Part shown: positions 45,841 through 58,613 of the stretch, piece after piece
Numbering within the stretch: position 1 is the first letter of the stretch
How the letters are laid out: each line of letters starts with the position of its first letter
Assembly (NCBI GenBank): GCA_049997815.1
Contig: JBEKVQ010000001.1
Coordinates: 20,642-84,641, forward strand
Source: Minisyncoccia bacterium
Lineage (GTDB): Bacteria; Patescibacteriota; Minisyncoccia; UBA6257; GWB1-50-10
Length of the DNA: 64,000 nt
Direction of reading: 5' to 3'
Translations under genes and position numbers: made by a program
Notes under the pieces: model-generated
Seen by the model: only the letters and a program-made list of their open reading frames with translations
What the model was told of the DNA's origin: nothing
The model's database searches: none

Positions 45841-46905
45841 TTAGGGCGATTCTAACCGAGAGTCATTCCAGTAATCGTGAGACTGAAACCAAAACTCGTT
45901 TTTCAGCCTCTCGCTCAATCTTCGTGTGTTGGCGTGAGACAGAACGCCGAGATATGACTGAATGGACTGCTCGAAACTCAGCTTAGAGATTTTTCTAGTC
46001 TCGTATTTTTTCATCCTTTCTTCCATTTTTTTAAACATCCTATGTTTGGTTTTTGACCGGATGAGTCTGTGGTGAGGGAAAATAACATAGCCAAGGAAAT
46101 CCACTCCTTGACATACTGAACGAAGTATGCTTTTATTAGGATGTAACTTAAGTGCGAGTTCATTTTCAAGAAATTCAGAGATCGGATTCAGAAGCTTTTC
46201 CAATTCTTCGGGGCTTTCCGAGACCAGGGCGAAATCATCGGTGTAGCGGACGTAGTGTTTTACTTTCAACCTATGCTTCACAAACTGATCAAGTTCGTTC
46301 ATATAGACATTGGCAAAGAGCTGGGAGGTCAGATTCCCTATGGGGATGCCCTTCCCCGGTGCACTCTCGTAACTCCTCACAATAGACTCCAAAAGCCACA
46401 GCGCATCAACGTCTTTGATGCGTTTTTTGATTATGGAAAGCAGGATTTCGTGGCTAACGGAGTCAAAGAACTTCCGGACATCACATTTCAGTACAAAACA
46501 GGGATGAGTGTTGTTCCGGCTTACTTCCCTCATAATCTTCTCCAAAACTTCCACCCCTTTATGAGTGCCAAAACCCACCCGACACGAAAACGAAGTTGGA
46601 ATGAAGGTCGGCTCGAAGACCGGGTTCACGACCGAGAAGACTGCGTGATGGAGAATCCGATCCCGAACCGTGGCCTTGTGGATATGACGCAGTTTTGGGT
46701 CAGTGATGTAAAAGCCTTTATACGGACCATGCTTATAGGTCTTACTTTTCAAATCCCGGTGAAGTTGAAAAATATTTCGCTCAAGATTCCATTCGAAACT
46801 CTGGACATCCGGCTTACCCCGCTTATCGCTCTTGAACGAATCCCAGGCCGAGAAGAGGTTCTCCGGCGAGATAATTCTTTCAAAAATGTTTTTATAGATC
46901 TTCAT
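45841..46905 (-). CDS. diversity-generating retroelement reverse transcriptase
   Basis: RT motifs including GIPIGNLTSQLFANVYM (the DGR-specific I/LGxxxSQ in place of the group II QG...) and YVRYTDDFAL (YxDD). Only 354 aa, with no maturase or endonuclease domain. Confidence 0.8.
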   Translation of the reverse strand: MKIYKNIFERIISPENLFSAWDSFKSDKRGKPDVQSFEWNLERNIFQLHRDLKSKTYKHGPYKGFYITDPKLRHIHKATVRDRILHHAVFSVVNPVFEPTFIPTSFSCRVGFGTHKGVEVLEKIMREVSRNNTHPCFVLKCDVRKFFDSVSHEILLSIIKKRIKDVDALWLLESIVRSYESAPGKGIPIGNLTSQLFANVYMNELDQFVKHRLKVKHYVRYTDDFALVSESPEELEKLLNPISEFLENELALKLHPNKSILRSVCQGVDFLGYVIFPHHRLIRSKTKHRMFKKMEERMKKYETRKISKLSFEQSIQSYLGVLSHANTRRLSERLKNEFWFQSHDYWNDSRLESP

Positions 46906-46924
46906 AAAAGGTATTCAATAACCT

Positions 46925-47275
46925 ATGGATGATTTCGACATTCCGATATTCAAAAAATCATACGAACTTTACAAAACGTTCTATGGATACCGTACCATTA
47001 TTGCCAAGCAGGACAGATACGCCATATGGCAGAGATCCGAGGATACAACCTTGGAGATTCTCGAAGGGATCCTTGCAGCCAGTCAGGCGTATAAAACGGA
47101 CAAACTACCAGCCCTTGAGAAAGTCAGTCTCAAACTGAACATTCTGCGCGTCTTTCTTCGGCTCATGAAAGAGGTAAAAACGCTGGATAATAAGAAGTAC
47201 ATCGCGCTCCAGTCGCTCGTGGATGAGATCGGGAGAATGCTCGGCGGATGGATTAAATCCACCAAAGAAAGATAG
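46925..47275 (+). CDS. avd: DGR accessory variability determinant (Avd; four-helix-bundle / 23S rRNA IVS-protein family)
   Basis: C-terminus EIGRMLGGWIKSTKER closely parallels BPP-1 Avd EVGRILGSWIARVNRK. Length is 116 aa. A hairpin cccgct-atttt-agcggg follows the stop. Confidence 0.7.
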   Translation: MDDFDIPIFKKSYELYKTFYGYRTIIAKQDRYAIWQRSEDTTLEILEGILAASQAYKTDKLPALEKVSLKLNILRVFLRLMKEVKTLDNKKYIALQSLVDEIGRMLGGWIKSTKER

Positions 47276-47327
47276 GGAGAATGCCCGCTATTTTAGCGGG
47301 TATTCCACCTTCATTGAGGAGTGACTT

Positions 47328-47452
47328 CGAGACGAAGCCGGAAGCCGAACCATAGTTGTCGTTAGCATTGCTGACCCAGTTCGTGTTGAACTTGACCTTG
47401 TCGTCGTTGAACTTGAAGTTCGGGGCGTTGTCGAAATCGCCATCGGCCTCAG
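47328..47452 (-). repeat. DGR template repeat (TR)
   Basis: 125 bp. On the minus strand it reads GAC AAC GCC CCG AAC TTC AAG TTC AAC ..., with 8 AAC codons. Matches the VR except at its adenines. Confidence 0.8.
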
Positions 47453-47722
47453 AAATCATTGCCCTCGTCCATCCACGTCACTGGAAATCAAGGTTTACCG
47501 CTCAATAAGAGCTTATATCCTCTCAATCCTGTATTTTATCCGGCAGCATCTCTAAAAAGAAAACCTGCACCAGACAAGAGCAAGCAGTAATCTCCTCAAT
47601 ACAATACGCTCTTGGAAACCTTGACCTCCAAGATTCTGATTGTTTTTCTCTTCCTTGAAGAGAGAGTTCGGTGACGGCAATCCGTGAACTACCGTTCATG
47701 AACCTAATCTCATTCTGAATTA

Positions 47723-47764
47723 TACAAAAATAAAGAGGTTATCCACAATGAAGTGAATAACCTC
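47723..47764 (-). terminator. rho-independent terminator of the DGR target gene
   Basis: gaggttat...ataacctc hairpin with a U-run on the minus strand, downstream of the target-gene stop. Confidence 0.5.
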
Positions 47765-47840
47765 TCAAAAATATGACGCGGACGAAAGGATCAAACGACA
47801 AAACGTCAAAAGGTCCAAGGGTCCAAGGTACAATGTTCGA

Positions 47841-48755
47841 TTACTGCGAGACGAAGCCGGAAGCCGAACCACAGGCGTCGCCAGCAGCGCCGACCCAGCG
47901 CGCGCCGAACCGGACCCGGCCGTCGTCGAACCCGAAGCGCGGGGCGCGGCCGAAAACGCCATCGGCCCCAGGAGAGAATTCGTCGCCGGCACAGTCGATC
48001 CAAAGATCGTCATAGTTCTGTAGACGTTCCGGATGAGTAAGAATCATTATCCCTACTGCGAAAGCACCAAGACCGAACTGGTTGTCTTTCATGACTTCCA
48101 GTGCCCGACGGACTGAACGGCCTCTGTGAAGGATGCCGAATTGCGCGGCCACGACGAGAATGTCGTGATCCTTCTGTTCTTCGCCAAGCTTCTGGAAAAT
48201 CTTCGCCGATTTCTCGGACTGACGGAGATTCTTCGGACCAAGCTGACCTTCACGGTAGTTGTAGAACTTGCCGTCGCGGGTCTTCTTGATCAGATCCAGA
48301 ACCTTCTGGACTGCTTCTCCGTAGGTCGGAGCAACACTCTGCCACTTCGGGATAGCAAACCATCCTTCGGCGTTTGCGGGAAGCGGCTGTTCGGCCAGTT
48401 TCTCGTCGGCGAATCCGATGCCGGGGATGAGCTGGCGCAGGATGTTGGTCTGCTCGGTGATACCCTTCGGTTTGTATCCGGAGAGGTATCCGTATTTCGA
48501 CGATACTTCTTCACTGGCGAACTGATTCGAAACGGAAAGTTCTTTTACTTTCGCAATCGAGAATTCCAACATCGCGGAGCGATATTCATCTCCCCGCCCG
48601 AGAAAACACTGGAGACTGTCTTTGTTGAAACCAGCCTTTTCAACGGCTATTTCGGCCACTTCTTCATTCAAGTCTTGAATGAATCGTTTGACCTGCTTTT
48701 TCTGACCGGGAGTGATCCCGTTAGATGTGATCGATGTATTTTTCATCGTCATCAC
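47841..48755 (-). CDS. DGR variable (target) protein
   Basis: 304-aa ORF whose last ~41 codons are the VR (…GADGVFGRAPRFGFDDGRVRFGARWVGAAGDACGSASGFVSQ). The C-terminal Gly/Trp-rich region is compatible with a C-type-lectin/FGE-like variable fold, but this is inferred. Confidence 0.7.
   Translation of the reverse strand: MMTMKNTSITSNGITPGQKKQVKRFIQDLNEEVAEIAVEKAGFNKDSLQCFLGRGDEYRSAMLEFSIAKVKELSVSNQFASEEVSSKYGYLSGYKPKGITEQTNILRQLIPGIGFADEKLAEQPLPANAEGWFAIPKWQSVAPTYGEAVQKVLDLIKKTRDGKFYNYREGQLGPKNLRQSEKSAKIFQKLGEEQKDHDILVVAAQFGILHRGRSVRRALEVMKDNQFGLGAFAVGIMILTHPERLQNYDDLWIDCAGDEFSPGADGVFGRAPRFGFDDGRVRFGARWVGAAGDACGSASGFVSQ
47847..47971 (-). repeat. DGR variable repeat (VR) at the 3' end of the target gene
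   Basis: 125 bp aligned to the TR with 28 mismatches, every one at a TR adenine. The shared A-free 3' end GGTTCGGCTTCCGGCTTCGTCTCG is IMH-like. Lies 3 bp from the target-gene stop. Confidence 0.8.
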
Positions 48756-48994: not shown

Positions 48995-50341
48995 ATGAAT
49001 ACCCAAACCATGGGGGCGAACGGGACGGGAGCCTCCACAACAATCCCGGCCCAAGTAAAGGTCAAATACCTGCTCTATGCGAGGAAAAGCACGGAATCGG
49101 AGGAGCGGCAGATACTCTCCATTGATTCGCAGGTGAAGGAGATGCTTCAGCTGGCCGAGCGCGAGGGGTTGGAAATCTCCGAGATTCGGCGCGAAAGCCA
49201 CTCGGCCAAAGCGACCGGACAACGTCCGGTGTTCAACGAGATTATCAATGATATTCGCCTCGGCAAGTTCAACGGCATTCTCACCTGGGCGGCGGATCGG
49301 TTATCGAGAAATGCCGGGGATCTGGGCAAGCTCGTGGATCTGATGGATGAGAAACTCCTTGTTGATATCCGGACGTACGGCCAGCGATTCAGTAATTCGC
49401 CGAACGAGAAGTTTCTTCTCATGATCCTCGGGTCACAGGCGAAGCTCGAGAACGATAATCGGGGCGTGAACGTGAAGCGCGGACTGCGAACGCGATGCGA
49501 GATGGGATTGCGGCCGGGCGTAGCGCCCACTGGCTATCTCAACGAGAAAAGAATGGATAGAAAATGCCAAGTGCTCATCGACCCCGATCGCGCCCATATC
49601 ATCAAAAAGATTTTTGAGAAGGTAGCTAATGAACATTGGAGCGGAAGGAAGGTCTATCACTGGCTACGCTTCGATCTGAACTTCCGCACGAAGAGCAACC
49701 ACCACCTCTCGCTCGGAAACATCTATTTAATGATTCAGAATCACTTCTATTACGGAAGATTCGAGTATCCGGAAAAGAGCGGCATGTGGTATGACGGCAA
49801 GCACCAGCCGATTATAAGCAAAGAGTTGTTCGATAAAGTGCAGGAGCAACTGAAACGGGACCAGATCGTGCGGTCGGAAATAAAAGAATTCGCATTTACG
49901 AAGCTCATGACCTGCGGGCTCTGCGGATCGGGCGTGAGCGCCGAGGAGAAATATAAGAAGCTCAAAGATGGCACGTCGGCGCGATATGTCTACTATGGCT
50001 GCAGCCGGGCGCGGGACAAGAACTGCAAAGCCGGATATATACGCGAAGAGGATCTCATTGAACAGCTCGTGAAGGTTATGGACAAGCTCGATATAAGTGA
50101 GATCGGTATGCAGCATAAATTTGAAGAGGAAGTAGCAAGATTCAATAAATTCCAAAAGGGCATCCTCGGGATGCAGGGTATAAAAACCAATGCGAAAGAC
50201 GTAGATCTGCGTACCTACGCGAAGTATCTTCTCCGGGAAGGGAGTGCCATCGAAAAGCGTGAGCTACTGGCGTGTGTGAAGAGTAAATTTATATTCAAAA
50301 ACAAGCTTGTGCATCTAGAAAAAGCACTAACTGAGCAATAA
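48995..50341 (+). CDS. large serine recombinase
   Basis: Resolvase catalytic domain (YARKSTESEERQ with the nucleophilic Ser), a recombinase domain and a C-terminal zinc ribbon (CGLCGS...YYGCS). Confidence 0.8.
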   Translation: MNTQTMGANGTGASTTIPAQVKVKYLLYARKSTESEERQILSIDSQVKEMLQLAEREGLEISEIRRESHSAKATGQRPVFNEIINDIRLGKFNGILTWAADRLSRNAGDLGKLVDLMDEKLLVDIRTYGQRFSNSPNEKFLLMILGSQAKLENDNRGVNVKRGLRTRCEMGLRPGVAPTGYLNEKRMDRKCQVLIDPDRAHIIKKIFEKVANEHWSGRKVYHWLRFDLNFRTKSNHHLSLGNIYLMIQNHFYYGRFEYPEKSGMWYDGKHQPIISKELFDKVQEQLKRDQIVRSEIKEFAFTKLMTCGLCGSGVSAEEKYKKLKDGTSARYVYYGCSRARDKNCKAGYIREEDLIEQLVKVMDKLDISEIGMQHKFEEEVARFNKFQKGILGMQGIKTNAKDVDLRTYAKYLLREGSAIEKRELLACVKSKFIFKNKLVHLEKALTEQ

Positions 50342-50378: not shown

Positions 50379-52121
50379 ATGAAAACCTATGAACACTTGA
50401 CTTTATATTTGCAGTCTGATAGACTTGAATTACAAGCTATGAGAAAGGATATACAAGCAAAACTTAATGGAATGCCGGAATTGCTCTCTATCAGCCAGGT
50501 AGCTGAGATTTTCAATATTCACCCCGACACCCTCCGAAACTGGGAGAAGGAAGGCATTTTAGTGCCTCTACGGGCCGGTAAGCGCGGAGACCGCAAATAC
50601 CGCCCCCAGGACATTCAAACCATTGTGGACAAAATGGGCAGTAAGCTCACCCTGCCACAACTTGAGCAGTTCCTTTGGAAAAGCGCCGATATTCTCCGCG
50701 GCAAGATCGACAGCTCCGATTACAAGAAATATATATTCGGACTCCTCTTTTACAAACGAATCAGTGACGTTTGGGACGAGGAATATAAGCGAGTGATGGA
50801 AGAATATAAAGATGAGACGGTCGCGCGAGCTGATTACAACCACCGTTTTCAAGTACCTCAGGATTGCCGGTGGTCAGTTATTGAGGAGCAGGCGGAAAAT
50901 ATCGGCCCCAAGCTTAATGGAATCTTTGATAAGCTCACGAACGCCAACAGCCCGAAGCTGGACAAAATTTTTGACGACCTCGATTTTGCACACAAAGATA
51001 AATTTCCGAATGAAACCACTCAGCGTTTAATAAATCACTTTTCGCAATACAACTTTAGCGATACGTATATCAACTCCGATCTTCTTGGGGACGCATACGA
51101 GTATCTCATTAAGCAGTTTGCGGCTGATGCCGGGAAGAAGGGTGGGGAATTTTATACCCCGCGAGAAGTTGAGCGCGTTATCATCCAAATTCTGAAGCCA
51201 CACAAGAAAGATCACATATATGATCCTACCGTTGGATCAGGCGGTTTTCTTCTTGAAGCGTATCACCACCTAAAGGAAACAGATGGCGAAAAAATTGCAC
51301 GGACACTTTATCTCTATGGGCAAGAAATAAACATCGGAACATTTGCGATCGCGAAGATTAATATGTTTCTCCACGGACTTGACGCTGCAGATGTCCAGCG
51401 CGGTGACACACTCGCGAATCCTCAATTCTTGAACCCGAACGGAACGCTAAAAACATTCGACATCTGCGTAGCAAATCCTCCCTACTCAATTAACGACTGG
51501 GAAAGCGAGCTGTTTAAAGAAAGATATGGCCGAATTGAAGGTTACGAAATACCGCCGAAGAGTAATGCGGACTATGCTTTCGTACTCCATATCATAAAGT
51601 CAATGAATTCAAATGGCCGCGCAGGTATCGTATTGCCTCACGGTGTTTTATTTCGCGGTGGTGCTGAAGGACGTATCCGTGAACAGATTCTCAAGAACGA
51701 CCTTATTGAGGCGGTGATTGCGCTCCCACCTAAGCTTTTTTATGGTACCGGCATACCGGCGGCGATTCTCATTTTCAACAGAAATAAGTCGGAGGACCAT
51801 AAAAATAAAGTCTTCATCATTGATGCCGAGAAGGACTTTTCCGAAGGCAAAAACCAGAACTCACTACGCGTGCAGGATATCCAAAAGATTGTGAGGGCAT
51901 ATGAAAACTACACAGACATTGAGGGCTATGCTCGAGTCGTTGGCCTTAAAGAGATTGAGGAGAACGAGTACAGCCTCGGTGCGCGCAGATATATTGAAAA
52001 CGACGACAAGGAAGAGACTATAGATGTTTCTGCCGTTCGAAAGGAACTCCTCGCGATTCAAAAGGAACGCGCGGATATAGATAAAAAGGTTGAGGGATTT
52101 CTCTCGGATCTTAAATATTGA
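50379..52121 (+). CDS. hsdM: Type I restriction-modification methyltransferase subunit HsdM with an N-terminal MerR/Xis-type HTH extension
   Basis: HsdM N-domain, FYTPREV, and VANPPYSI (motif IV NPPY). The first ~85 aa form a HTH_17-like domain (LLSISQVAEIFNIHPDTLRNWEKEGIL). Confidence 0.9.
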   Translation: MKTYEHLTLYLQSDRLELQAMRKDIQAKLNGMPELLSISQVAEIFNIHPDTLRNWEKEGILVPLRAGKRGDRKYRPQDIQTIVDKMGSKLTLPQLEQFLWKSADILRGKIDSSDYKKYIFGLLFYKRISDVWDEEYKRVMEEYKDETVARADYNHRFQVPQDCRWSVIEEQAENIGPKLNGIFDKLTNANSPKLDKIFDDLDFAHKDKFPNETTQRLINHFSQYNFSDTYINSDLLGDAYEYLIKQFAADAGKKGGEFYTPREVERVIIQILKPHKKDHIYDPTVGSGGFLLEAYHHLKETDGEKIARTLYLYGQEINIGTFAIAKINMFLHGLDAADVQRGDTLANPQFLNPNGTLKTFDICVANPPYSINDWESELFKERYGRIEGYEIPPKSNADYAFVLHIIKSMNSNGRAGIVLPHGVLFRGGAEGRIREQILKNDLIEAVIALPPKLFYGTGIPAAILIFNRNKSEDHKNKVFIIDAEKDFSEGKNQNSLRVQDIQKIVRAYENYTDIEGYARVVGLKEIEENEYSLGARRYIENDDKEETIDVSAVRKELLAIQKERADIDKKVEGFLSDLKY

Positions 52122-52122
52122 T

Positions 52123-53412
52123 ATGAAAACGGCACAGACGACAATTCCGAATGGGTGGCAACAAGCAAAGCTTGGTGACATTGCTAAGTTACGTAAGGGA
52201 TTAACTTACAAAAGTTCACACTATTCAAATAAGCAGGATGGTTTAATTTTTCTTACTCTCAAGTCCATCCTAAGAGGGGGTGGTTTTAATACCGATGGGA
52301 TAAAGTTCTATTCTGGAGATTATGATCCTTCTGCTGTTGTAAATGAAGATGATTTGGTGATCGCAAATACTGATATAACACGGGATGCTGAAGTTGTTGG
52401 AGCACCGATGCTGCTCCCGGGTTTTCCAAAGAAACCCGTCTTAATCTCAATGGATCTTTCTGTTTTAGATATCAACGAAAGAGGTGCAAATAAACACTTT
52501 ATATATTATCTTTTACAAGCTCCAATGGCCCGTAATTTTATGAGAGACCACTCAAATGGCTCTACCGTCCTCCATCTCAAGACCAAAGACGTTCCTAGAT
52601 TCAGTTTTTTAATGCCAACTATTACGGAACAGAAAAAGATTGCGGAGATTTTGGGGACAGTAGATGCAGAAATTAAAAAAACCGACGAGATTATTATTGC
52701 TACAGAGAAGCTCAAAAATGGGCTAGTACGACAGTTGTTTACCCGAGGTATTGGACACACAAAATTTAAGAAAACTAAATTCGGTGATATTCCGGCAGAA
52801 TGGACTACAGAAAGTTTCAAAGATTCGTCAATTGAAATTATTGATGGCGACCGCGGAGTTAATTATCCAAAGCAAACCGACTTCTCTGATGACGGCTACT
52901 GCTTGTTTTTGAATAATAAAAATATAAAGAACGATGCTTTTCTTTTTGAAGATTGCAGCTTTATCACAAAAGAAAAAGATGGGACCTTGCGCAAGGGAAA
53001 GCTGAAGCGCTTTGATGTTGTGCTTACCACAAGAGGAACTGTAGGAAATATTGCGTTTTATGACAGTACCGTCCCATTTGAAAACATTCGAATAAACTCC
53101 GGAATGTTGATCCTCCGCGTTTCGAGAGGTTATGAGCCAGAGTTCCTGTACCGACTAATGAGAAATGAGTATATGAAAAGGAAATATACCGAAACGGCTT
53201 CAGGGTCTGCTCAACCGCAGCTACCCATTCGTAGTCTGGAAAATATTCTTATAGTTAAGCCAGATATTTCCGAACAAAAAGAAATAGTCGCAATCGCAAA
53301 ATCGGTTGACGAAAAAATTTCTGTGAACAAAAAATTGAGAGAGAAGCTCATTCTTCTCAAAAAGGGACTTATGCAAGATCTTTTGAGCGGCAAGGTAAGA
53401 GTAGTTACATAA
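52123..53412 (+). CDS. hsdS: Type I RM specificity subunit HsdS
   Basis: Two target-recognition domains separated by the conserved central region (LVRQLFTRGIGHTKFKKTKFGDIP) and the C-terminal conserved helix (LKKGLMQDLLSGKVRV). Start taken 1 nt after the hsdM stop. Confidence 0.8.
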   Translation: MKTAQTTIPNGWQQAKLGDIAKLRKGLTYKSSHYSNKQDGLIFLTLKSILRGGGFNTDGIKFYSGDYDPSAVVNEDDLVIANTDITRDAEVVGAPMLLPGFPKKPVLISMDLSVLDINERGANKHFIYYLLQAPMARNFMRDHSNGSTVLHLKTKDVPRFSFLMPTITEQKKIAEILGTVDAEIKKTDEIIIATEKLKNGLVRQLFTRGIGHTKFKKTKFGDIPAEWTTESFKDSSIEIIDGDRGVNYPKQTDFSDDGYCLFLNNKNIKNDAFLFEDCSFITKEKDGTLRKGKLKRFDVVLTTRGTVGNIAFYDSTVPFENIRINSGMLILRVSRGYEPEFLYRLMRNEYMKRKYTETASGSAQPQLPIRSLENILIVKPDISEQKEIVAIAKSVDEKISVNKKLREKLILLKKGLMQDLLSGKVRVVT

Positions 53413-53418
53413 ATTATT

Positions 53419-54507
53419 ATGCGATTCATAGACATATTTAAAACTGATGCAGCATCTATTCTCCAGAATCGAAAGAATGGGGTTATTTATACTGCGGACT
53501 TTGGAAGTGGCGAAGGGAAATATATTAGTTCCGCATTTGATAGTACTGATCCCGTTGATTTGAGTATTCAGATTTCTCCAAAAGTCGAAGTGAGAATCGC
53601 ATATATTTTTAACGGTGAACAAATCAGTGGGTTACAGATATCGAAAGTTAATAATAAGGGTGAGCTGGAAAAGATTCATCTTTCGACCTTGGATTGGGAG
53701 GGAGTGCTTGGTTTACTCCAGATATTCTCGGAGATGGATATTAAGGCATTAGCGCGCAAAAATTTGATTTTGAATGAAAAAATTACAGAGAATCCTCAGG
53801 AGTTGGAAGCATTCTTAAAAACTATTAGCACTGATCCGGAGGGAAAAGAGAAAATGACGGAAATCGTGAAAAACTTTGGTCTTATTAAGCGTGGCGATAT
53901 TGATGAAATCGCTGAACGTAGAGAGTCATCAGCTCTATTTGATAGATTACTCAATAATTCCACCGAGTTTGCTGCAAAGAAAACAGAATGGGGTGTCGGT
54001 AAAAATGAAGAGGTTTGGCAAAGATTTTTTAAAGAAAATGTATGGATTCTTGGTGCAGAGTTTATTGAGATTCTTAATGAACGGGTGCTCGATACAGAAA
54101 ACATAACAGACTATATTGTGAAATCGTATGACGGTTTTGCGGATATTATTGAATTAAAACTTCCGAGTGTACAATTTTGGAACGCAGATCTAACACCAAA
54201 TAGTGACTTAGCAAAAGCACTCATGCAGTGTATGCGTTATATTTCGGCAATTGAAAGAAGGATCAACGACCTTGAGCTTAATAAAAAACTTGGTCGAACA
54301 GCTATTGTGAAACCTAGAATCACATTGATTTTTGGCCGGTCGAATAATTGGACAGATGAACAGAGGGAAACATACAGAATTTTAAATGCCAATTTTCATT
54401 CCATAAGTATTTTGACTTACGATCATGTTTTTGAGAGGGCAAAAAGGATGACTGCTAATAATATGCGTGACGTTGATGATATAAAACCGGAAGTTATCAC
54501 ATTTTAA
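53419..54507 (+). CDS. uncharacterised protein with a PD-(D/E)xK nuclease-like motif (possibly DUF4263/Shedu-like), embedded in the Type I RM operon
   Basis: ITDYIVKSYDGFADIIELKLP gives a D...ExK arrangement, followed by QCMRY. Sits between hsdS and hsdR with 6-bp and 3-bp gaps. Confidence 0.45.
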   Translation: MRFIDIFKTDAASILQNRKNGVIYTADFGSGEGKYISSAFDSTDPVDLSIQISPKVEVRIAYIFNGEQISGLQISKVNNKGELEKIHLSTLDWEGVLGLLQIFSEMDIKALARKNLILNEKITENPQELEAFLKTISTDPEGKEKMTEIVKNFGLIKRGDIDEIAERRESSALFDRLLNNSTEFAAKKTEWGVGKNEEVWQRFFKENVWILGAEFIEILNERVLDTENITDYIVKSYDGFADIIELKLPSVQFWNADLTPNSDLAKALMQCMRYISAIERRINDLELNKKLGRTAIVKPRITLIFGRSNNWTDEQRETYRILNANFHSISILTYDHVFERAKRMTANNMRDVDDIKPEVITF

Positions 54508-54510
54508 TTT

Positions 54511-57423
54511 ATGAAATTCAACGAACAACATACAATTGAAAATCACATCATCAAGTTTCTCAAGGAGGAACTTGGTTATGAATATATAAAACCGCAAGAG
54601 TTTGCGAAGCTGCGCGAATTTGAGAACGAATACATTATCGCCCCGCTCCTTACTGTGGCAATAAAGAAAATCAACGAGATTACTGATGAGACAGAAGCTC
54701 AAGTAGTAGTGCGTGAGGTTAAAAAGCTTGATTCAAACGAGGCATTCTTAAATGTTCTCCGAAACGGCCTCAACTTAAAAGATCCCGAAACCGGTAAGAT
54801 GCGTGATTATTTTATCGTTGATTTTGATAGGCCGGAAAACAATCATTTTGTTGTCACAAATCAATTTTATTTTGAAGGTAACTCCGAAAATATTCGCCCA
54901 GACGTGATGGTATTTCTAAACGGTCTGCCGGTGGTTGATATTGAGGCTAAGAGCCCAACTGCCTCAAGCAGTATTGATTACTCCAATGCCGTAGGTCAGA
55001 TAAAACGATACGAACGCAATGCCTTTAAACTTTTCTGGCCTAACTGTTTCAATATCGCCTCCGACGGCCTGAAGACCGTGTATGGCGCCACCTATGCTTC
55101 GGCAGAGTATTTCCTACAATGGCGCGAGGAGGAACTGGCGAAGAAATATGGTGAGGAGCTCGAAGTGACGCTTGCCGCACTTATCTCACGCGATCGCCTG
55201 CTTGATATCATCGGAAACTTTATTCTCTTTGAGAAAGAGCAAGAAGGAACCATAAAAAAGATCACCCGCTACATGCAGTATCGGGCCACCAATAAGATCG
55301 TTGAGCGTGTTCAAAGTGGAAAAACAAAGCGCGGCCTCGTTTGGCATACACAAGGGTCTGGAAAATCCTTCACTATGTTTTTTACCGCATGGAAGTTGCG
55401 TTTCGACAAGAAACTAAAAAACCCAAAGGTCTTCGTTTTGGTTGACCGGATTGATCTTGATGATCAGCTCTACAACACGTTTCTTAATTGTGGCGGGCAA
55501 AATGTGATCCGGGTAGAATCCCGTCGCGATCTTGAACGAAAAATCCAATCTCCAGAACGTGGCATTTTTATCTCTACAATTCAGAAATTCTCCGAGCTGG
55601 GCGATGAGGTAAAAAATCTCGACGAGAACATTATTGTTCTTTCTGACGAAGCGCACCGGGATAACGAGGGCATCTCCGCAATCAATTTGCGAAGCGCTAT
55701 GACGAACGCTTTTTTCTTCGGTTTTACTGGCACCCCGATTGATCGACTAACTCTCAATACCCACAGAAATTTCGGCGAGGAGGGAGAACGCTATCTTGAT
55801 TACTACTCTATTCAGCAAGCCGTTGATGATGGAGCGACGCTGCCGGTTACCTATGAAGCGCGGCTTTCTAAATTCTTCATTAACGAAGAGGAGCTTGATA
55901 AGCAATTCGACGAGCTCACAGTGGATCTGAACGAAAAAGAGAAGGACCAGATTTCAAAGAAATATGGTAAAAAGGAAGCAATCGTAAAGCTCGATAGGCG
56001 TATGGAGGCAATCGCCCGGGATATCGTTGAGCACTTCAAACTCTATGTTGAGCCAGCTGGGTTCAAGGCACAGATTGTTTGTTATGACCGCGAGACTACG
56101 GCCAAGTATAAAAAACTACTTGATCAACTTGTACCAAAAAACTGGTCTGAAGTTGTTTACTCTCCCGGAGATGCCAATACCGATTCAGAAGAGTTGCGGA
56201 CATATAACACGACGAAGGCAAAACGGGAGAAGATCATCAACGAGTTCAAAGATCCGAACAGTTCTCTGAAGTTCTTGCTCGTTTGCGATATGCTCTTGAC
56301 CGGCTTTGACGCGCCTGTTGAGCAAGTTATGTATCTTGATAAGCCACTATGGGATCACAATCTCCTGCAAGCAATCGCGCGGACGAACCGTATTTATCCA
56401 AATAAGGGGGCCGGAAAGGTTATTGATTACTATGGCATCACACGAAGTCTCTACAAATCGTTGAACTTCGACGAGAGTATTGTTGATTCCGCGATGATTA
56501 ATATTGACAAGCTCAAAGAGGAATTCGAGGAGGTTTTGGACGAATTGAAAAATCTCTTTGTCGGTATTAACACCGAAGACCCTTCTATCGAAAATCTCCG
56601 CCGGTGCTTAAAGATTTTTGCGGACAATATAGAAAAACAGAAGTTCTATCAGGAGAAGTACGCTCGTCTGAAGCTTCTTTTTGAAGTTCTGTCCCCGGAC
56701 CCATTTCTAAAAAAACATATTCGTATCTTCGAATGGTTTACAAGCGTATTCATCGCTTTTGAAAAAGAGTATGGTATGAAAGTATCCGATACGGAGCTTC
56801 TTGCAAAATACGGCGAGAAAGTGAAACAGCTCATCCAACAGCGAGTTGACTATGAGGGCATCACCAAGAATTTCCGCGAGCTTAATGTAAATGATCTTTA
56901 TGTAATGGAGCGGCTTAATAAGATGGATGACGAAGAAAAAGCGCTCAATCTTGAAAAGATGCTTAAGCAGGAAATTTCTATCAATGTTGATACGAATCCG
57001 GCATACAAGAAATTCAGCGAGCGGCTCTTGGCAATACGAAAAGAATTTGAGCAGCACCAAATTGATCTTGCGGAGCGAATTAAACGCTACCAAGAGCTTT
57101 TGTCGGATATAAAGAAAAAAGGAGACGAGGCAAAAGAGCTTGGCTTCACACTCAAGGAGTATGGTTTATTCGTTATCTCGGAAGAATTCATCGTTGATAG
57201 TGACAAAGCCACGGTGCATGAATTTATTAAGGAAATGACGAACCGGCTGGAAGAGGTGCTTGATGAAGGGTGGCAAGAATCCTCTAAGCGGGAAGAGTTT
57301 TTGAAGGAGGCCAAGAGGATCATTCAGGAGCTTGTGCTCAAGGAGTACAAGGGAAAGATAAGGGTCAACGACTTCCATAAGTATTTGAATCGGCTCATCG
57401 ACATCGTAATTAAGAAATTCTGA
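54511..57423 (+). CDS. hsdR: Type I RM restriction subunit HsdR (helicase/endonuclease)
   Basis: N-terminal nuclease region (VDIEAK), helicase motif I HTQGSGKS, DEAH box VLSDEAHRD, motif VI. 970 aa. Confidence 0.9.
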   Translation: MKFNEQHTIENHIIKFLKEELGYEYIKPQEFAKLREFENEYIIAPLLTVAIKKINEITDETEAQVVVREVKKLDSNEAFLNVLRNGLNLKDPETGKMRDYFIVDFDRPENNHFVVTNQFYFEGNSENIRPDVMVFLNGLPVVDIEAKSPTASSSIDYSNAVGQIKRYERNAFKLFWPNCFNIASDGLKTVYGATYASAEYFLQWREEELAKKYGEELEVTLAALISRDRLLDIIGNFILFEKEQEGTIKKITRYMQYRATNKIVERVQSGKTKRGLVWHTQGSGKSFTMFFTAWKLRFDKKLKNPKVFVLVDRIDLDDQLYNTFLNCGGQNVIRVESRRDLERKIQSPERGIFISTIQKFSELGDEVKNLDENIIVLSDEAHRDNEGISAINLRSAMTNAFFFGFTGTPIDRLTLNTHRNFGEEGERYLDYYSIQQAVDDGATLPVTYEARLSKFFINEEELDKQFDELTVDLNEKEKDQISKKYGKKEAIVKLDRRMEAIARDIVEHFKLYVEPAGFKAQIVCYDRETTAKYKKLLDQLVPKNWSEVVYSPGDANTDSEELRTYNTTKAKREKIINEFKDPNSSLKFLLVCDMLLTGFDAPVEQVMYLDKPLWDHNLLQAIARTNRIYPNKGAGKVIDYYGITRSLYKSLNFDESIVDSAMINIDKLKEEFEEVLDELKNLFVGINTEDPSIENLRRCLKIFADNIEKQKFYQEKYARLKLLFEVLSPDPFLKKHIRIFEWFTSVFIAFEKEYGMKVSDTELLAKYGEKVKQLIQQRVDYEGITKNFRELNVNDLYVMERLNKMDDEEKALNLEKMLKQEISINVDTNPAYKKFSERLLAIRKEFEQHQIDLAERIKRYQELLSDIKKKGDEAKELGFTLKEYGLFVISEEFIVDSDKATVHEFIKEMTNRLEEVLDEGWQESSKREEFLKEAKRIIQELVLKEYKGKIRVNDFHKYLNRLIDIVIKKF

Positions 57424-57424
57424 T

Positions 57425-57994
57425 ATGGAAAAGCAGATCACATTACAAAACAAAAAAGTCACTTACACTCTCCGAAAAAGCACACGGGCAAGAAGGATGC
57501 GCCTTGCTGTATATTGTGATGGGTCTGTCGTGGTGACGACGCCGCACGATTTACAAGAAACCACCGCCGAGAAGTTCATAAAGGAAAAGACGACTTGGTT
57601 ATTTTCAAAACTTGCATTCTTTAGGCAATTCAAAGGAAGATCGATTGCGCGACATAGCCATCAGGATTACTTAAATCGTAAAGAGGAAGCACTTGCTATT
57701 GTTCAGCAAAAAGTTGAAATCCTCGCGAAACGATACGGATTCCGATTCAATAGGATCAACATCAAAAATCAAAGGACCCGCTGGGGGAGCTGCTCGAAAA
57801 AGGGCAATCTGAATTTCAATTACAAGGTGATGTTTTTACCGGCAAATGCCCAAGAATACATTATTGCTCATGAACTTTGTCACCTGAAGGAATTCAACCA
57901 TTCGAAAAGGTTCTGGGGGCTGGTTTCAAAAATAGTATCGAATTACTCGAAAATTAAAAGTGAATTAAAAAAGAGTGGTTTATCTTTTTACTAA
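57425..57994 (+). CDS. DUF45/M48-family (YgjP-like) zinc metallohydrolase
   Basis: HELCHLKEFNHSKRFW HExxH motif. 2-bp gap after hsdR. This family frequently accompanies Type I RM operons. Confidence 0.7.
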   Translation: MEKQITLQNKKVTYTLRKSTRARRMRLAVYCDGSVVVTTPHDLQETTAEKFIKEKTTWLFSKLAFFRQFKGRSIARHSHQDYLNRKEEALAIVQQKVEILAKRYGFRFNRINIKNQRTRWGSCSKKGNLNFNYKVMFLPANAQEYIIAHELCHLKEFNHSKRFWGLVSKIVSNYSKIKSELKKSGLSFY

Positions 57995-58087
57995 AATAAA
58001 ATCACCCATACTGGGTGATTTTATTCAAGTAACTCGGTCGCACTAGTGCCTCGGCTGAGGCCATCGGTACGATAACAACGCCTTGTC

Positions 58088-58106
58088 TGCGGAGGGTAGA
58101 GGATTC
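58088..58106. repeat. 19-bp direct repeat tgcggagggtagaggattc (tRNA-proximal att-like copy)
   Basis: Forms the 3' end (T-loop to discriminator) of tRNA-Ser(CGA). Identical to 39777-39795. Confidence 0.6.
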
Positions 58107-58176
58107 GAACCTCTGAGGGGATTTCTCCCCAACCGCATTTCGAGTGCGGCGCGTTAGACCACTCTGCCAACCCTCC
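58090..58176 (-). tRNA. tRNA-Ser (anticodon CGA)
   Basis: Reverse complement GGAGGGTTGGCAGAGTGGTCTAACGCGCCGCA-CTCGAAA-TGCGG...GGTTCGAATCCTCTACCCTCCG. Long variable arm. Anticodon loop CTCGAAA. Confidence 0.85.
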
Positions 58177-58184
58177 TTCGCACG

Positions 58185-58256
58185 TGCCCCCGAGAGGAAT
58201 CGAACTTCTATCTTATCCTTAGGACGGATCCGCTCTATCCATTGAGCTACGGGGGC
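58185..58256 (-). tRNA. tRNA-Arg (anticodon CCT)
   Basis: Reverse complement GCCCCCG TA GCTC AATGGATA GAGC G GATCC GTCCTAA GGATA ... GTTCGATTC ... CGGGGGC A. Anticodon stem is 4 bp plus a 27:43 G-A mismatch. Confidence 0.7.
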
Positions 58257-58326
58257 GATGCTATGTATTTATATGATAAGTTGAAGCTCATGTAAAGTTT
58301 TGTTATGATGTTCTCGCAACAAATAA

Positions 58327-58398
58327 GGGCGATTAGCTCAGTGGTAGAGCGTTTCATTGACATTGAAAAGGTCAGAGGTTCGATACCTCTATCGCCCA
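58327..58398 (+). tRNA. tRNA-Val (anticodon GAC)
   Basis: GGGCGAT TA GCTC AGTGGTA GAGC G TTTCA TTGACAT TGAAA AGGTC AGAGG TTCGATA CCTCT ATCGCCC A. Confidence 0.85.
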
Positions 58399-58406
58399 CA
58401 GGCAGG

Positions 58407-58477
58407 GGGCCTATAGTAAAACGGTATTACGCGGCCATGGCATGGCTGAGGTCGGGGTTCGATTCCCCGTAGGTCCA
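58407..58477 (+). tRNA. tRNA-Ala (anticodon GGC)
   Basis: GGGCCTA ... CGGCC ATGGCAT GGCTG ... CGGGG TTCGATT CCCCG TAGGTCC A. Has the G3:U70 wobble pair characteristic of tRNA-Ala. Confidence 0.8.
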
Positions 58478-58489
58478 CGGGATTTATTC

Positions 58490-58576
58490 GGAGGCGTGCG
58501 CGAGTGGTTGAAACGGACGGTCTTGAAAACCGTTATGTCCGCAAGGGCATCGAAGGTTCGAATCCTTCCGCCTCCG
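58490..58576 (+). tRNA. tRNA-Ser (anticodon TGA)
   Basis: GGAGGCG ... ACGGT CTTGAAA ACCGT, a long variable arm, AAGG TTCGAAT CCTT, CGCCTCC G. Confidence 0.85.
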
Positions 58577-58613
58577 CAAAATAGATTTTCTTGATTTTAT
58601 CCGTTAAAGTTTA

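Follow-up and report, generated by a model that had tools for sequence, protein, structure and literature searches.

The window, the whole 64,000-nucleotide stretch of contig JBEKVQ010000001.1 of a Minisyncoccia bacterium that was analysed, carries a compact same-strand cluster composed of hsdM, hsdS, sduA, hsdR and a ygjP-like (DUF45) gene. Coordinates and domain matches are shown in Table 1. The sduA gene is a 362-aa open reading frame that a previous sequence-only reading had placed between hsdS and hsdR, and this position was confirmed with an ATG start and with the neighbouring genes identified by Pfam and PADLOC. Computed gaps, with the junction sequences read, were 1 bp from the hsdM stop to the hsdS ATG, 6 bp from hsdS to sduA, 3 bp from sduA to hsdR and 1 bp from hsdR to the ygjP-like gene. 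Gene calls made independently by JGI for the source contig gave the same boundaries for sduA and its neighbours, including the hsdS ATG at 52123, and a second, independent assembly holds an identical sduA operon.

Table 1. Position and characteristics of the genes and features of the window (position 1 is the first nucleotide of the window; DGR, diversity-generating retroelement).
Feature	Position	Strand	Characteristics
DGR, complete	45841–48755
DGR RT	45841–46905	−
DGR bAvd accessory gene	46925–47275	+
DGR template repeat (TR)	47324–47452
DGR target gene	47841–48755	−	304 aa; no Pfam match
DGR variable repeat (VR)	47843–47971		at the 3' end of the target gene
Large serine recombinase gene	48995–50341	+ (same as hsdM)	Resolvase, Recombinase and Zn_ribbon_recom; ends 37 bp upstream of hsdM
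hsdM, Type I methyltransferase subunit	50379–52121	+	Pfam N6_Mtase 5.9e-107, HsdM_N 2.4e-26; PADLOC MTase_I 5.4e-142
MerR-type HTH region of HsdM	50379–50630	+	HsdM residues 1–84; MerR_1 1.7e-11 at residues 37–82
hsdS, Type I specificity subunit, two target-recognition domains	52123–53412	+	Pfam Methylase_S 7.3e-25 (two stretches); PADLOC Specificity_I 1.5e-60
sduA, Shedu immune nuclease	53419–54507	+	362 aa, full length
SduA N-terminal beta-rich domain, putative sPC4/Whirly-like sensor	53419–53733	+	residues 1–105; strands 23–27, 34–38, 47–53, 56–65, 68–77, 83–88; helix 93–105
SduA helical linker	53734–53994	+	residues 106–192; AF2 helices 108–191, pLDDT up to 97 at 170–192
SduA PD-(D/E)xK nuclease domain	53995–54456	+	residues 193–346; motif I E197, II D231, III E245/K247, IV Q270
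hsdR, Type I restriction/translocase subunit	54511–57423	+	Pfam HSDR_N 4.9e-35, SWI2_SNF2 1.9e-71, T1R_D3-like 2e-19; PADLOC REase_I 3.7e-143
ygjP-like (DUF45) metallopeptidase gene, last of cluster	57425–57994	+	Pfam YgjP-like 6.2e-44
Strong hairpin	57988–58032		overlaps the ygjP-like stop codon
Hairpin and five tRNA genes	57988–58577		Ser, Arg, Val, Ala, Ser

Promoter-like and terminator-like sites within the operon were not commoner than in shuffled sequence, and the scan yielded a sole strong hairpin, at the end of the ygjP-like gene. The tight packing and the scan are consistent with co-transcription of sduA with hsdMSR, which the sequence-only reading had considered nearly certain; the gaps of 1 to 6 bp on which that reading relied are correct, but they fit co-transcription without proving it. 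The HsdM protein bears a MerR-type HTH at its N-terminus, before the HsdM_N and N6_Mtase domains, which could act as a built-in regulator of the operon. The same fusion was seen in a related operon (L055) and is suggested by the alignment starts in four further loci (L002, L003, L005 and L008). At the other end of the cluster, the recurrence of a YgjP-like/DUF45 gene as the next gene after hsdR in seven or more related loci (L001–L003, L008, L009, L019 and L055) suggests that this gene is a conserved accessory of this Type I restriction-modification (RM) lineage.

The cluster is probably a mobile island, on account of the large serine recombinase gene upstream of hsdM, the 21-nt hairpin followed by tRNA genes at the cluster end and the low G+C content, taken together. 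The G+C content is 0.366 for sduA, the lowest of the cluster, 0.43–0.45 for hsdM and hsdR, and 0.49 for the window. Searches for att-like direct repeats on either side of the recombinase-RM island, and for inverted repeats in hsdS indicative of phase variation, gave nothing beyond short repeats at chance level. Recombinases 65–66% identical to that of the window flank the hsd-Shedu operon in two other loci (L008 and L021). Additionally, a complete diversity-generating retroelement is located just upstream of the cluster, and all mismatches between its template and variable repeats are at T of the + strand, that is, at A of the coding strand.

The product of sduA is an ordinary member, and judging from its sequence apparently an intact one, of the known Shedu (SduA/DUF4263) family of anti-phage nucleases. 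The Pfam family SduA_C (PF14082, formerly DUF4263) matched residues 195–336 with 69.5 bits against a gathering cut-off of 27, over profile positions 2–157 of 159, and was also found in the precomputed annotation of all 95 sequences of alignment A1. A total of 21 PADLOC SduA models matched the protein. The best of them was PDLC00385 (1.2e-59, model positions 155–315 of 319), and PDLC00392 matched almost over the full length (residues 6–348, model positions 9–392 of 396, 6.3e-24). Under the PADLOC single-gene rule for Shedu, an SduA HMM with E ≤ 1e-25 and coverage ≥ 50% (Payne et al. 2021), the open reading frame is classified as Shedu, with a borderline coverage of about 50% on the best model. 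The likeness to PD-(D/E)xK nucleases and to DUF4263/Shedu, which the sequence-only reading had suggested, is thus now backed by computed matches. On the other hand, its description of the gene as uncharacterised does not hold, since NCBI already lists the same protein under the name [quoted passage not shown], and for the family structures have been solved and a mechanism published. About 90 full-length homologues with 46–84% identity were retrieved, mainly from metagenome-assembled genomes of Patescibacteria/CPR.

Profile and structure searches against DUF4263/Shedu, Cap4 and NucS gave Shedu as by far the best family. With the single SduA sequence, a search of the PDB matched SduA of Bacillus cereus at 1.4e-6, in the nuclease domain only. 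A 43-sequence profile matched the same protein (PDB 8ti8) at 1.3e-36 over linker and nuclease, profile positions 122–369 corresponding to chain residues 143–378, and matched SduA of Escherichia coli at 2.8e-16. The predicted structure is an elaborated restriction-endonuclease-like fold closest to the solved Shedu structures. A housekeeping family was rejected, since NCBIfam gave no meaningful match and no competing family (best TYW1, E 0.078, far below its cut-off). NucS/EndoMS, Cap4 and Type II restriction enzymes were also rejected, as Shedu scores far higher; Pfam recognises SduA_C rather than NucS_C, and the NucS N-terminal domain is absent.

The stretch ITDYIVKSYDGFADIIELKLP includes D231, E245 and K247, and Q270 falls in QCMRY, the arrangement to which the previous reading had drawn attention. 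In a phmmer alignment to 8ti8, E197 corresponds to E204 of B. cereus SduA, D231 to D249, E245/K247 to E264/K266 and Q270 to Q295 (chain numbering, which equals that of the paper plus 2; motifs as defined by Gu et al.), and the arrangement thus maps to the B. cereus active site. All five residues are invariant in the 43-sequence alignment (A5), which reaches down to 21% identity, and in a 96-sequence alignment (A7), and therefore SduA is predicted to be catalytically competent. The AF2 pLDDT was 85–97 across the nuclease core. A decayed remnant carried as a passenger, with no current role in defence, might be expected from the low G+C content of sduA, which suggests foreign origin, but this explanation is highly improbable: the gene is full length when compared with homologues of 350–377 aa, its reading frame is unbroken and closely fitted into the operon, all the catalytic residues and many positions of the N-terminal domain are kept, and the operon is identical in the second assembly.

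The sequence-only reading had recognised nothing in the N-terminal 230 residues. The non-nuclease part is shorter, about 192 residues, as E197 of motif I opens the catalytic domain, and it was found to recur in other proteins. When residues 1–193 alone were compared with 1.84 billion representative proteins, 51 clusters were matched, always at the N-terminus of proteins of about 335–411 aa or of fragments. A profile of this region retrieved 116 proteins, including proteins of cultured Flavobacterium, Pseudocolwellia and Aliivibrio already named as Shedu. Every match longer than about 270 aa carries PF14082, while the shorter ones without it look like fragments. From these sequence matches, the region is a recurring, Shedu-specific module and not an orphan. 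The match of the 43-sequence profile to B. cereus SduA begins in the linker and leaves the N-terminal domain outside. AF2 was run twice on the monomer, first with 95 sequences and then with 96 (relatives at 20–25% identity being added the second time); this domain was modelled with low confidence both times, and these low-confidence models hint at a nucleic-acid-binding Whirly-like fold. Type 1A Shedu proteins have an sPC4/Whirly N-terminal domain, with a beta-beta-beta-beta-alpha topology, modelled as a homodimer (Gu et al.).

To describe the genomic context of this clade, one genome per GTDB species was scanned, which yielded 49 loci. Full-length homologues, with the N-terminal module, were present in 25 loci, and same-strand hsdM and/or hsdR genes were detected by tblastn in 20 of them. 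Two apparent exceptions (L018 and L022) have Dam-like/DPPY methyltransferase genes of Type II directly upstream, another (L020) is cut by the contig end, and only L028 and L039 were without any RM gene. Linkage to hsd genes, for which the previous reading had proposed a survey, is therefore recurrent. It was found in 5 of 24 loci of nuclease-only relatives (Fisher p = 5e-5 against 20 of 25, a value that overstates independence because the loci are related by descent). An unbiased Pfam census of two open reading frames per side in 24 full-length loci counted 15 neighbours with N6_Mtase, 21 with Methylase_S (7 upstream and 14 downstream) and 9 to 11 with HsdR domains; N6_Mtase and Methylase_S were each found four times among 75 neighbours of the nuclease-only relatives.

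The association is not bound to one RM lineage or position. Identity to the window proteins across the loci ranges from 24 to 74% for HsdM, from 25 to 72% for HsdR and from 47 to 55% for SduA. The gene immediately before sduA is hsdM in 10 loci and hsdS in 4, as well as in the window and L055; in most surveyed loci the same-strand gaps lie between −32 and +42 bp. Other cargo found in the same slot (L001–L023, L051 and L055) comprises RhuM, Bro-N, Fic/DOC, AbiEii with RloB, AAA_13, KAP NTPase, SLFN-type helicase, GIY-YIG, SieB, YhcG and Mrr. The slot of CPR genomes also holds several open reading frames of 110–450 aa without Pfam match, which could be embedded defence candidates.

Moreover, the linkage is not obligate. 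Type I operons also house a 72%-identical homologue and a protein of F. algoritolerans, but a 69%-identical homologue stands alone beside rpoD/dnaG, with no RM gene within 8 kb, and more remote members that share this N-terminal module are free-standing, either next to housekeeping genes or in island-like surroundings of another kind. In Flavobacteriia (Flavobacterium arcticum, L050; L049 and others), distant members occupy a conserved non-RM site, flanked on one side by DUF3822/RsmD-like methyltransferase genes and on the other by the DNA polymerase III delta' gene, which suggests a lineage-specific insertion hotspot.

These data bear on how far the function of SduA depends on its neighbours. 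It could be a second-strike nuclease whose N-terminal domain senses the ends or single-stranded DNA made by HsdR on unmethylated phage DNA, so that SduA amplifies the degradation and depends on the hsd genes. The frequent location in Type I operons, the two loci beside Type II methyltransferases and the tight same-strand packing agree with this role, as do the recognition of free DNA ends by E. coli SduA (Loeff et al.) and the complementation of RM by Shedu suggested by Gu et al. It is nevertheless unlikely, because of the free-standing homologues, some of them with the same N-terminal module, and of the diversity of partner hsd families and gene orders; besides, Shedu proteins that have been characterised give heterologous hosts protection as single genes.

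The same two observations weaken a dependence of the PrrC kind, in which SduA would be held latent on the Hsd complex through its N-terminal domain and freed once the Type I enzyme is knocked out by an Ocr- or ArdA-like anti-restriction protein of the phage. The order hsdM-hsdS-X-hsdR is that of the classical E. coli prr locus and no ligand is confidently assigned to the N-terminal domain; PrrC itself is almost exclusively embedded in Type I RM systems (Payne et al.). However, this clade is found with Hsd proteins sharing 24–30% identity, beside Type II methyltransferases or alone, which is hard to fit with a specific interface, its N-terminal module is also present in the free-standing genes of Flavobacteriia, and the fold hints are of a domain that binds nucleic acids. 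SduA does not show the obligate embedding and dependence on Type I RM that define the PrrC type, its homologues occurring without hsd genes and with varying partner families and positions, and a guard of this sort is very improbable.

Taken more broadly, the CPR-centred clade could be a dedicated RM accessory, its N-terminal domain reading a restriction product (HsdR ends or single-stranded DNA) or the integrity of Hsd; Shedu and Type I RM would then constitute a single integrated two-layer system and not two neighbours. The embedding rate of about 80–88% of the 25 loci, against about 11% for Shedu overall (counts that are non-independent), is compatible with such integration, but the free-standing homologues and the diverse hsd partners disfavour it, and we give it little credence.

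In our opinion, the gene most probably encodes a catalytically competent, three-part Shedu protein, an autoinhibited homotetramer that cuts DNA when triggered by nucleic acid, carried as self-contained, co-transcribed cargo within a Type I RM operon that lies on a probable mobile island. [quoted passage not shown] The N-terminal domain may detect a nucleic-acid feature linked to infection, such as single-stranded DNA, the trigger of Whirly-type Shedu domains according to Gu et al., or free DNA ends; upon sensing, the nuclease would be released and DNA cut. As self-contained cargo of a variable slot, sduA would allow the cell to field two DNA-targeting defences together, restriction based on sequence and methylation and a structure-sensing Shedu. 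The free-standing homologue at 69% identity lends indirect support to a defence conferred by sduA on its own. The simplest sense of its placement in the hsd operon would be co-expression and co-mobility of two complementary defences.

Among the closest known systems is Shedu of B. cereus B4264 (PDB 8ti8 and 8ti9; Type 1A, Gu et al.), with nuclease-domain identity of only about 20% to the SduA of the window. Sequence similarity is not detectable over the N-terminal approximately 120 residues, the linker is of about 87 residues in the latter versus 53, and B. cereus Shedu stands alone, whereas the SduA of the window is encoded inside a Type I RM operon of a CPR/Patescibacteria host. The match to E. 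coli SduA (PDB 8ps4/8ps5; Loeff et al.) is limited to the nuclease core; its N-terminal clamp, which reads DNA ends, is not detectably related to the N-terminal domain of the window protein, and thus end-sensing is not confidently transferable. EndoMS/NucS and Type IIS/nicking restriction endonucleases have the PD-(D/E)xK fold in common with SduA, with scores far weaker than those of Shedu.

The tiny genomes of Patescibacteria/CPR had been considered poor in defences other than RM. The phylum is missing from the main Shedu hosts named by Gu et al., and a Shedu clade documented in it is a modest addition. Both the identity of the gene and its genomic arrangement are already described, pipelines already recognise sduA, and Shedu in RM operons is already published, so that little changes for the field. 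The sequence-only reading was right, as far as the computed Shedu matches indicate, in proposing that the gene is an anti-phage effector housed within a Type I RM operon, but a new Type I RM-associated defence component, as it suggested, is unlikely: Gu et al. placed 602 of 5,499 Shedu genes inside Type I–IV RM systems and proposed complementarity, Payne et al. described embedded defence genes as frequent in Type I RM, BREX and DISARM ("guilt-by-embedding"), and TgvAB of Vibrio cholerae VPI-2 is an experimentally tested case of a Type I RM-embedded defence. Like PrrC, TgvAB, the cassettes of Payne et al. and the loci of Gu et al., the locus of the window has a same-strand defence gene inside the hsd operon, here in the hsdS-hsdR slot. 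It differs from PrrC in that a physical or regulatory dependence on the Hsd complex is not in evidence, and from the Shedu-in-RM loci of Gu et al. in that its clade is embedded far more often, an unusually high rate which makes it a reasonable test case, again a modest addition, for the synergy of co-embedded defences.
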